Origin: a virus
Lineage: Duplodnaviria > Heunggongvirae > Uroviricota > Caudoviricetes
Direction: 5' to 3' (one strand)
IMG/VR virus record: IMGVR_UViG_3300012346_000561
Span: 78,358-142,357 of that record
Length of the DNA stretch: 64,000 nt
Positions within the stretch are counted from its first letter, which is position 1. Each line of letters opens with the position of its first letter. The notes beneath the pieces are model-generated. The model was not told the DNA's origin, searched no databases, and saw nothing but the letters and a program-made list of their open reading frames with translations. The translations under genes and the position numbers were made by a program. Below, piece after piece: positions 53,529-55,947 of the stretch.

Positions 53529-55163
53529 TTACATGAACATGTTAGGATCTATTCCTGCACCTTGTTCATCTTTGTCTTTTACGTTAGTAATAATACATTC
53601 TGTGATCAACATTGTTCCTGCAACTGATGCTGCATTCTCTAAAGCCAATCTTGTTACTTTAGTTGGATCAATGATACCTTCTGTTAACATATTAACATAC
53701 TCTCCTGTTCTAGGATTAAATCCTTGCCACTTATCTTGTGCAAGTAGAGTTTGTTCTCTGTCTTCAATCTTTTGTTGAGCCTCTCCTGCATTCAATAATA
53801 TTTGTTCGAATGGCTTTCTGATTGCTCTCATCACAATGTCAAATCCTTTTTCTTGATCTGGGTGATGTGCTACTAGTGGATTCTCTCTTAAGTGGTGTGA
53901 TGCGTTTAGTAAAGCAATTCCTCCTCCTGGTAAGATTCCTTCTTCTAAGGCTGCTTTGGTTGCATGTAGAGCATCGTCCACTCTATCTTTTTTCTCTTTC
54001 ATTTCAACTTCGGTATGTCCTCCTACATGTACCATTGCTACTCCTCCAACAAGTTTTGCTAATCTGTCTTGTAAAATTTCTTTCTCGTAAGGTGAAACTG
54101 TGTTATCGATTTGTTGTTTCAACTCCTCAATTCTTGCAGTAATAGCTTCTTCAGATCCTTTACCATCTACGATAGTTGTTGTATCTTTTCCTACTGTTAC
54201 TTTTCTTGCTTGTCCAAACCAATCTAAATTGAATTTATCCAACTTCATTCCTTTCTCTTCCGATACAACTGTACCTCCAGTAAGAGCTGCAATATCTTCA
54301 AGCATAGCTTTCTTCTTGTCTCCAAATTCAGGAGCTTTAACTGCTACTACTTTTAAGATACCTCTCATCTTGTTTACAACAAGTGTTGATAAAGCCTCTC
54401 CGTCAACATCATCTGCAATAATAAGGATTGCTTTGTTTTGTTGAGATACTGATTCCAATAAAGGAAGCATTTCTTTTACATGTTGGATTCTTTTGTCTGT
54501 GATAAGGATTAGTGGATTGTCCAATACTGAAGTCATAGTATTGTTGTCTGTAACGAAGTAAGGTGATTTATATCCTCTATTGAATTGCATACCCTCTACA
54601 GTCTCTAAGTAAGTTTCTCCTGTTTTAGATTCTTCAATAGTGATAACTCCATCTCTACCTACTTTGTCCATTGCTGTTGCAATAAGTGCTCCTACCTCTG
54701 TATCATTGTTACCTGAGATTGTTGCTACTTGTTTGATTTGTTCTTCGTCTGTTACTTGCTTAGAGTAGTCCTCTCTCAAGTATTCTACTACAGCTTTGGT
54801 TGCAATGTCAATCCCTCTTTTAATTTCTACTGCATTAGAATTCTCTAATTCAGATAATCCCTGTCTGTAGATTTCTCTTGCAAGTAATGTTGCTGTTGTA
54901 GTTCCATCTCCTGCTAATCTTGCTGATTCGATTGCTACTTGCTTTACAGCTTGTGCTCCAGTATTCTCAGTTGGATCTTCTAACTCAACTTCTTTTGCTA
55001 CTGTTACACCATCCTTTGTTGAGGTTGGATTGGCTCCTGCATGTTGGATAAAAACGTTTCTACCTGATGGTCCTAAAGTACTTACTACTGCATCAGCTAA
55101 TTGATTTACTCCTGATAGTAACTTCTCTCTTGCTTCTTTTCCGAAACTAATTTGCTTACTCAT
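53529..55163 (-). CDS. groL: chaperonin GroEL (Cpn60)
   Basis: 544 aa; canonical GroEL blocks ([39 protein letters not shown]). Confidence 0.85.
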
Positions 55164-55165
55164 AA

Positions 55166-55471
55166 CTACTCTTGTGATTCTTTAATTGTTGCTAAAATTT
55201 CTCTGTCTGGTGTGATGTAGTACTCTTGTCCTTCAAAGTCAATTCGCAGTGTTCCAATCTTAGGAACCAATACAATGTCTCCTACATTTGCTCGCACTGT
55301 AATAAATTGCCCAAACTCTGACTGACGTCCTGGACCTACTGCAACTACTTCTCCCATTTCTGGTTTCTCTTTACCCATGTCTGGAATGATAATGTTTCCA
55401 TACATTTCTTCTCCTGATTCGATAGGCTTGATAAGTACTCTATCGTTTTGAGGCACTAATGATTTACTCAT
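55166..55471 (-). CDS. groS: co-chaperonin GroES (Cpn10)
   Basis: 101 aa; VLIKP..mobile loop..GEVVAVGPG; 3 nt upstream of groL. Confidence 0.8.
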
Positions 55472-55545
55472 AAAACTAATTTACTTTTTTGATTATTATT
55501 TAATATAGTAAGAAAAAATTAAAGATGCAACTCTAGGGCAGAGTA

Positions 55546-55947
55546 TTATTTTATCTTAATTGTTTTAGGTTTAGCTTCTTCCGATATTGGTATAAAGATT
55601 TCTAATAATCCATTCTCCAATTTAGCTTCTACTTTACGTAGATTAAATTTAGATGAAATTTTGTAACCTAGATTGAAAGATCTCTTTGCTAATCCTCTGT
55701 GAATTGTTCCTGGGTGAATTTCTTCTGGTTCTTTTTCGTAACTAATTTTTAAAACATCTTCTTCGATGTTTACATTTACATCTTCCTTTGTAAGACCTGT
55801 ACAAGCTACTTCGAAGAATAGTCCTGTCTCGTCATGAAAAATGTTTAAAGGGTGTGGTTGTTTTGCCTGAACAGCTGATAAGAATCCGCTGGTTGGTTGA
55901 AAGAAATTGTGGAATAGAATATCCCATTCGTTGAATTGTGTACTCAT
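55546..55947 (-). CDS. small heat-shock protein, Hsp20/alpha-crystallin family
   Basis: 133 aa; alpha-crystallin domain (…FEVACTGLTKEDVNVNIEEDVLKISYEKE…GLLEIFIP). Confidence 0.75.
   Translation of the reverse strand: MSTQFNEWDILFHNFFQPTSGFLSAVQAKQPHPLNIFHDETGLFFEVACTGLTKEDVNVNIEEDVLKISYEKEPEEIHPGTIHRGLAKRSFNLGYKISSKFNLRKVEAKLENGLLEIFIPISEEAKPKTIKIK

Follow-up and report, generated by a model that had tools for sequence, protein, structure and literature searches.

The window analysed here, a stretch of 64,000 nucleotides (nt) from a Caudoviricetes virus (IMG/VR record IMGVR_UViG_3300012346_000561, positions 78,358 to 142,357), contains a chaperone locus made up of groEL, groES and hsp20, the last of which encodes a small heat-shock protein (sHSP). 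In the list of open reading frames (ORFs) all three genes are found on the minus strand, where the original prediction, a model's reading of the sequence, had placed them:

55546-55947, minus strand: hsp20, 133 amino acids (aa); sHSP; alpha-crystallin domain, C-terminal I-K-I motif
55166-55471, minus strand: groES, 101 aa; co-chaperonin with the mobile loop YGNIIIP
53529-55163, minus strand: groEL, 544 aa; group I chaperonin of a virus-specific lineage

The gap between groES and groEL is 2 nt, and that between hsp20 and groES is the predicted spacer of 74 nt (55472-55545), in which the string quoted for it, GAGTTGCATCT, was found. The region is ~85% identical in nucleotide sequence to Flavobacterium phage vB_FspM_immuto (Immutovirus immuto, MW353175), a 160-kb myovirus. 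The gene for DNA polymerase A (polA) lies upstream of the module and genes for small proteins and lysis lie downstream, in synteny with immuto, and the base composition of the module is that of the remaining window; the module is therefore carried by the phage, between genes that are also those of a phage. Both genomes have the order polA-GroES-GroEL-57aa-...-Zn finger-chitinase-holin (with a chitinase-like lysin); GroES and GroEL are annotated in immuto and are 77% and 87% identical, respectively, to those of the window. The two differ in the gap between polA and groES, which measures 63 nt in immuto, without orf77 or hsp20, and 851 nt in the window, where it holds both.

Searches of Pfam, PHROGs and PDB sequences concurred in all three assignments. 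Judged by the curated Pfam cut-offs (34 bits for PF00118, 21 for PF00166 and 20.8 for PF00011), GroEL matched PF00118 (Cpn60_TCP1) over residues 22-527 (E = 2.6e-68, 231 bits), GroES matched PF00166 (Cpn10) over residues 5-96 (E = 2.4e-21, 76 bits) and Hsp20 matched PF00011 (HSP20) over residues 39-132 (E = 1.5e-12, 47.9 bits). The PHROGs assignments were phrog_5725 (groEL) for GroEL, phrog_432 for Hsp20 and the GroES family for GroES. Among PDB sequences, GroEL scored 616 bits against its top match, a reconstructed ancestral GroEL of the Fibrobacteres-Chlorobi-Bacteroidetes (FCB) group, and 562 bits against E. coli GroEL (1aon); GroES reached 74 bits, and Hsp20 matched sHSP alpha-crystallin domains at 5e-6.

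Alignment to the reference showed that GroEL retains the nucleotide-binding motif GDGTTT and the Asp in RVDDALHAT (compare ...EDALHA...); the nucleotide-binding and catalytic Asp residues are presumably those numbered D87 and D398. The apical segments YxSPYF, LPLLE and EALSTLVVN were all kept in the PDB alignment, and we take Y199/Y203/F204, L234/L237 and L259/V263/V264 within them to be the hydrophobic residues that bind substrate and GroES. The protein ends in ...DPNMFM, which is conserved as DP(S/N)(Q/M)FM in relatives, and no GGM repeats were present in its C-terminal tail. The GroES mobile loop YGNIIIPD aligned with KGGIVLPD of Thermus GroES, the hydrophobic triplet being retained and the second Gly replaced by Asn; the pattern G-[S/N/T]-hhh-P (h, hydrophobic) was found in 66 of 77 relatives. 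Hsp20 ends in ...KTIKIK, and a C-terminal [ILV]-x-I occurred in each of the 31 relatives examined. The ratio of nonsynonymous to synonymous substitution rates (dN/dS) was 0.08-0.18 for groEL, 0.08-0.21 for groES and 0.10-0.12 for hsp20; all three genes are under purifying selection.

The arrangement recurs widely. Relatives of the window GroEL are encoded by at least 595 stretches in IMG/VR, and in the best 80 of these, which were surveyed for gene order, the succession polA-[variable gap]-GroES-GroEL-57aa was essentially constant; a protein database contained 1123 relatives, some on contigs of 150-167 kb. hsp20 was located directly upstream of groES in 29 of ~32 more distant loci, with GroELs 65-71% identical to that of the window, and in one further locus, L047 (related loci are cited by numbers of this kind where they must be told apart). 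A search from the sHSP side, in which viral sHSP loci were grouped by percent identity to the window Hsp20, gave a matching picture: all 41 loci at 49% identity or above carried GroES and GroEL just downstream, and at 47% or below neither was found alongside.

We read the locus as a phage-encoded proteostasis module, in which an Hsp20 holdase stands beside a GroES lid and a GroEL cage, and which belongs to a virus-specific, sHSP-linked GroES>GroEL lineage; we put the probability of this reading at roughly 0.8. By analogy with bacterial homologues, the ATP-independent holdase Hsp20 would bind aggregation-prone, newly made viral proteins during infection, and the phage GroEL/GroES would then fold those that fit the cage, most plausibly the major capsid protein and others up to ~60 kDa. 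GroES and GroEL would be matched as a pair, with the mobile loop G-N-I-I-I in place of G-G-I-V-L. Proteins of up to roughly 60 kDa fit into the GroEL-GroES cavity, and the capsid protein is the classical client of a phage chaperonin, T4 gp23 being an example. Given this limit, the 1382-aa tail protein that the original prediction had offered as a client is implausible for an encapsulating chaperonin, and the capsid protein is, by analogy, the more likely one. The suggestion of the original prediction that the phage does without the folding capacity of its host is speculative.

The module might instead act mainly on host proteins, as an auxiliary set that sustains the proteome or metabolism of the infected cell under stress, although we regard this as improbable. 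Its position among genes for replication, nucleotide metabolism and DNA modification, and not among structural genes, is compatible with such a role, as is the wide occurrence of sHSPs in marine cyanophages and pelagiphages too, and the clients were left open in the virome study of Marine et al. 2017 (PMC5649160). However, the change in the GroES loop points to a private GroES-GroEL pair, and not to cooperation with host GroEL. So far as is known, the roles established by experiment for phage chaperonins all lie in folding the phage's own proteins (gp31 of T4 with gp23, and gp146 of phage EL).

T4 gp31 and RB49 CocO are GroES-only systems, gp31 using the GroEL of the host, and gp146 of Pseudomonas phage EL is GroEL-only and works without a co-chaperonin. 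All three are phage-encoded group I chaperonin parts that fold phage proteins, and are thus alike in kind to the module of the window, but each supplies a single partner, whereas the window encodes both partners and a holdase. In the window, motif B of the upstream polA reads RNRAKPYSLGIAYG, compared with RRSAKAINFGLIYG in E. coli (aligned by eye); within it, AKPYSLGIAYG presumably places a Leu at the position of E. coli F762. The trio itself is not new. Marine et al. 2017 (ISME J, PMC5649160) described from Chesapeake and Norwegian viromes a viral 'GroES>GroEL' clade in which 25 contigs had an sHSP gene upstream of the operon, of a kind unlike the sHSPs of sequenced marine phages; the linked polA bore Leu762, and Asn or Ser stood in place of the conserved Gly in the GroES mobile loop. 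The premise that phages were known to carry either GroES or GroEL only was accordingly outdated, since immuto had both annotated and the 2017 study had reported the trio. Compared by description, that clade has in common with the window the order sHSP-GroES-GroEL, the Asn in the GroES loop and the polA Leu762; it consists of host-less metagenomic contigs, whereas the phage of the window has a cultured relative, a Flavobacterium myovirus. The text of Marine et al. 2017 makes no mention of promoters, terminators or RNA structure, and the promoters, the helix flanking hsp20 and the cassette swapping described below for the window have no counterpart in it.

In the phage collection searched, GroEL was present in 269 records and GroES in 30. 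The sHSPs closest to that of the window were of the cyanophage/pelagiphage type, at 27-34% identity; the window's sHSP subfamily was found in no deposited phage of this collection and was abundant in metagenomes. The sHSPs of T4-like cyanophages and of Pelagibacter phage HTVC008M are also phage-borne and fall into the same Pfam and PHROG families as the window Hsp20, but they have no link to groES-groEL and no long-range helix around them.

The original prediction had treated the three genes as one unit, yet hsp20 has been exchanged separately from the chaperonin genes, and most of the closest relatives lack it. In L162, whose backbone is a different one, with PolB and an additional ORF of 100 aa, Hsp20 is 80% identical to that of the window, whereas GroEL is 54.5% and GroES 33% identical; across L162-L204, Hsp20 identities of 74-80% accompany GroEL identities of 54-61%. 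Nucleotide similarity between the window and L162 is confined to a segment that runs from ~23 nt upstream of the 5' arm of the helix described below to ~40 nt past its 3' arm. Neighbour-joining trees (midpoint-rooted, without bootstraps) of Hsp20 and GroEL were incongruent, and because the two phylogenies conflict, hsp20 is concluded to move between phage lineages as a cassette, always upstream of groES. The contents of the polA-groES gap varied by locus, from 63 nt without a gene to orf77 alone, hsp20 alone, both, or other inserts. The 8-mer CTGCCCTA, which follows both polA and hsp20, was considered as a deletion-generating direct repeat and set aside, as it probably reflects homology or chance; it is present in 5 copies in the window, where 1.2 are expected (a count reached by 1 of 100 shuffles), and is common to the window and the region upstream of orf77 in L024.

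The hsp20 gene is bracketed by two complementary arms and preceded by a leader hairpin:

56009-56031, minus strand: 5' arm of the helix, with the core CTCTAGGGC within GATCGACTCTAGGGC (56027-56013)
55964-55980, minus strand: hairpin in the 5' untranslated region, GAGT[A]GC-TTAG-GCACTC, in which the bulged A is conserved; it lies 17-33 nt before the hsp20 ATG
55520-55544, minus strand: 3' arm of the helix, with the core GCCCTAGAG (55539-55531), beginning 2 nt past the hsp20 stop codon

The arms, one ~75-85 nt upstream of the hsp20 ATG and the other directly after the stop codon, are complementary to each other and covary between loci:

Window: 5' arm CTCTAGGGC, 3' arm GCCCTAGAG
L054: 5' arm CTCGAGAGC, 3' arm GCTCTCGAG
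L058: 5' arm CTTGAGAGC, 3' arm GCTCTCAAG
L061: 5' arm CCCCAGAGC, 3' arm GCTCTGGGG
L177: 5' arm AATAAAGTAATACAGCTGGAGCG, 3' arm TGCTCCAGCGTATTACTTTATT

In an alignment of 19 loci, 94% of the cells of the 15-pair helix were paired and six of its pairs had changed on both sides; the six pairs of the leader hairpin were 100% paired, and four had changed on both sides. Overall covariation was 0.394, a value reached by none of 500 shuffles (0.150 in shuffles), and slid controls paired just 25-47% of cells. The minimum-free-energy (MFE) fold of the window hsp20 transcript was one in which ~23 base pairs close the entire mRNA (z = -4.8), and the leader hairpin was predicted in both MFE folds. The duplex between the flanks had a mean energy of -30.0 kcal/mol in 56 distinct groES-groEL-linked loci, as against -12.0 kcal/mol in shuffles, and 54 of the 56 beat all 100 shuffles; no flank-duplex signal was obtained for 33 unlinked viral sHSP loci. 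When the flanks of 100 minus-strand ORFs of the window were scanned in the same manner, hsp20 was the only strong outlier (z = -4.9). Helix and hairpin were present in every phage lineage examined that carries the linked sHSP subfamily (L047, L050-L081 and L162-L204), and both were absent from unlinked viral sHSPs. A search of Rfam with positions 53000-56600 gave no match at E up to 1. A CIRCE-like identity of the leader hairpin (TTAGGCACTC) was rejected, the hairpin covarying in sequence; the CIRCE operator, TTAGCACTC-N9-GAGTGCTAA, which stands upstream of groES in bacterial groESL operons under HrcA/CIRCE control, was found nowhere in the window with up to 3 mismatches allowed.

We propose, tentatively and at slightly less than even odds, that hsp20 is a swapped cassette closed by the covarying helix and the leader hairpin, always upstream of groES-groEL. 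Our best guess is that the helix, as double-stranded RNA, serves the processing or stability of the hsp20 mRNA and would insulate it from its neighbours: a helix of the type that serves as an RNase III substrate could uncouple this message from those on either side. The RNase III stalks of rRNA operons, which are helices formed from sequences flanking 16S and 23S rRNA, resemble it in that roughly two duplex turns arise from sequences on either side of a long insert. Those stalks flank rRNA, whereas the hsp20 helix flanks a protein-coding phage mRNA, whose cleavage is putative and argued by analogy.

The inverted repeats might instead act on DNA, either as recombination or cassette-boundary sites or as half-sites for a binding protein, which we judge unlikely. 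This would suit the gain, loss and swapping of hsp20 as a unit, with nucleotide similarity between lineages stopping near the arms, and in some lineages the complementarity takes in the upstream promoter-like box. Comparable shuffling in T4-like phages is mediated by PeSL cassettes, composite promoter/stem-loop motifs (Arbiol et al. 2010, PMC2839356; Comeau et al. 2014, PMC4122927). PeSLs resemble the hsp20 flanks as small regulatory motifs at the borders of a variable gene, through which this gene appears to be inserted, deleted and swapped between related phages, but they are repeated composite promoter-terminator units with local stem-loops, in direct orientation and at many genome sites, whereas the hsp20 flanks are complementary to each other across ~470 nt, covary as a helix and occur at hsp20 only among 100 ORFs. 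What speaks against a role in DNA is that the arms stay complementary although their sequences are wholly replaced from one lineage to another, single compensatory changes included, that all copies of hsp20 have the same orientation, with hence no sign of inversion, and that no recombinase gene is linked. A helix of RNA on the mRNA strand was favoured over a DNA-level repeat because a G·U position of the helix is conserved in 17 of the 19 loci and because the sense-strand duplex is more stable than the antisense one in 45 of the 56.

Bacterial sHSP genes are the classic genes controlled by RNA thermometers, and the hsp20 ATG is preceded, at 17-33 nt, by a leader whose structure is conserved, so that helix and hairpin might together form a thermometer or translational switch of the ROSE or fourU kind. 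We consider this less likely still, as no Rfam family was matched, the hairpin ends 17 nt before the AUG, helix and hairpin cover neither the start codon nor the ribosome-binding region, and physiological temperatures would be too low to melt a duplex of -30 kcal/mol.

The prediction had left it to phylogeny whether the chaperonin was acquired from a host or is an ancient phage lineage, and this comparison was carried out against the genomes of 185,579 species of prokaryotes, one per species. The best bacterial GroELs were 52-57% identical to that of the window and nearly all came from the FCB group; in the neighbour-joining tree, all sHSP-linked viral GroELs formed a single clade, separate from bacterial GroELs. 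By these comparisons the GroEL is an old virus-specific lineage. A recent capture can be rejected, because the GroELs of Flavobacteriales share 80-94% identity among themselves and only 54-56% with the window GroEL. The host-derived flanks that were to lessen the interest of the genes were not found either, phage genes lying on both sides. The nearest cellular GroELs being those of the FCB group, an ultimate bacterial origin in that group is likely. Although these GroELs belong to the wider phylum group of the host, a recent, moron-like capture from a bacterial host, without a phage-specific history, is hardly credible given the divergence from Flavobacterium and other Flavobacteriales GroELs, the separate viral clade, the same position of the module in hundreds of viral contigs, and its phage flanks and window-like GC content.

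Promoter-like elements and a possible block end were located around the genes:

56301-56308, minus strand: TATTTATA box, a second promoter-like motif, whose end is 21 nt upstream of the orf77 ATG
55501-55530, minus strand: promoter-like element of groES-groEL, with TTG (55530-55528), a 20-nt spacer and TATATTA (55507-55501)
53219-53332, minus strand: GC-rich structured spacer that ends the block of groES, groEL and the 57-aa gene

The TATATTA at 55507-55501 sits 29 nt before the groES ATG and was invariant in the alignment of hsp20-bearing loci. Among 53 distinct related loci, TATATTA occurred upstream of groES in 46, and a TTG was positioned 19-20 nt further upstream in 44; TTG-N20-TATATTA was also retained in immuto-like loci without hsp20. 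The TTG at the 20-nt spacing is the one quoted in the original prediction, within GAGTTG. Eight of the 18 minus-strand copies of TATATTA in the window fall into the 8.2% of it that is intergenic, an enrichment of ~5-fold; other minus-strand copies are found, for example, at 62171, 50259, 45604, 34645, 23415 and 20603. The conservation of TTG-N20-TATATTA supports a separate groES-groEL promoter, and its place in the 74-nt spacer is plausible from the motif. The idea of one unit with its own promoter was thus supported for groES-groEL; it did not extend to hsp20, which has its own upstream box and is exchanged separately.

In other loci the TATTTATA box stands ~10 nt upstream of the hsp20 leader (5' arm), and in the window orf77 is inserted between the box (56308-56301) and the leader. 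Six of its eight minus-strand copies in the window are intergenic, mostly with the start of the box 20-30 nt before an ATG; further copies are found, for example, at 49035, 38226, 21373, 21071 and 16978. TATATTA and TATTTATA are both AT-rich, strongly enriched between genes and mostly 12-50 nt upstream of start codons, which suggests two classes of phage promoter. We infer two transcription units: a TATTTATA-type box would drive orf77 and hsp20, and TTG-N20-TATATTA would drive groES-groEL and the 57-aa protein, with its end at the GC-rich hairpin region. A promoter of the canonical Bacteroidetes type (TTTG...TAnnTTTG) was rejected, as none of the 24 copies of TAnnTTTG in the window is intergenic. 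Sigma-70 and intrinsic-terminator scans of 53000-56600 returned sites no more numerous than in shuffles.

The GC-rich spacer at 53219-53332 has a GC content of 53%, compared with 35% for the genome, and a predicted fold of -39.3 kcal/mol (z = -2.4). A motif ...GGGGGCG..CTCTCCTCACCGAAGGTGCCACGCGCAAATT is conserved in it across loci, and a CACC-GAA-GGTG hairpin covaries; RNAalifold returned a weak consensus for the spacer after the 57-aa gene, from a noisy alignment. In distant loci a canonical terminator follows the spacer, and in Rfam the spacer had no match. It may be a terminator or a structured RNA.

Elsewhere in the window, a 20-nt inverted repeat (21031-21050 and 21397-21416; 85% complementary, 346 nt apart) surrounds a small ORF and adjoins two TATTTATA boxes (21071 and 21373). 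It was no strong outlier in the per-gene duplex scan, and may be another bracketed mini-cassette.

Several points weigh against the account given above. hsp20 is missing from nearly all immuto-like loci, which are the closest relatives (GroEL 81-90% identical), so that at least some of the lineage can do without the sHSP. Given the type of tree, a long-branch effect could account for part of the viral GroEL clade. As for the transcription units, a sigma-70 scan of 53000-56600 found no minus-strand site in the spacer, a result that is uninformative for a Bacteroidetes-type host; TAnnTTTG is never intergenic, and the promoter assignments are based solely on motif conservation and intergenic enrichment. 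Where the helix reaches into the upstream promoter-like box, as in some lineages, it would form only in read-through transcripts, and its RNase III role is a guess from geometry.

Two small genes adjoin the chaperone genes:

56046-56279, minus strand: orf77, a 77-aa Thr/Ser/Gly-rich ORF between the TATTTATA box and the hsp20 cassette
53333-53506, minus strand: lysine-rich, basic protein of 57 aa, directly downstream of groEL

orf77 had no match in Pfam or PHROG; homologues were found only in four other loci (L024-26 and L036), at 51-60% identity and again between polA and groES, and its constraint is weak (dN/dS 0.35-0.54). The 57-aa protein scored 22.2 bits against PF07432 (Hc1, histone-H1-like), below the cut-off of 23.5. 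It follows groEL in ~70 of the 80 surveyed loci, at identities of up to 96% and with dN/dS of 0.05-0.09, and is better conserved than GroEL; its role may be that of a small partner to the operon, binding DNA or RNA. Near the chaperonin block of immuto (L001/L246; 34-37 kb and 60988-61395) are genes for DpdA and QueF (7-deazaguanine DNA modification) and for a DksA-like 'DnaK suppressor', and the window probably shares the upstream genes of this set. A gene resembling GIY-YIG/NUMOD3 homing endonucleases is inserted beside the chaperonin block in L164 (8714-9445), a PolB-type relative, and not in its siblings L162 and L163.

As first stated, the trio is ordinary; the helix around hsp20 and the cassette behaviour are the parts that may be new in comparison with Marine et al. 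2017 (PMC5649160). The chaperonin is seen here as an old virus-specific lineage, to which the sHSP is an optional and repeatedly swapped addition. The helix is a concrete, putative regulatory element that could explain an expression of hsp20 independent of its neighbours. If processing, stability or control is indeed its function, it would represent a class of cis-regulatory RNA that has not been described before and is devoted to a viral chaperone gene, and hsp20 would be one of the few protein-coding ORFs enclosed by a processing stalk of the rRNA kind. The window also links the metagenomic GroES>GroEL clade to Immutovirus-like Flavobacterium myoviruses, and thereby offers a cultivable setting in which to ask why a phage needs a private holdase-plus-foldase system.

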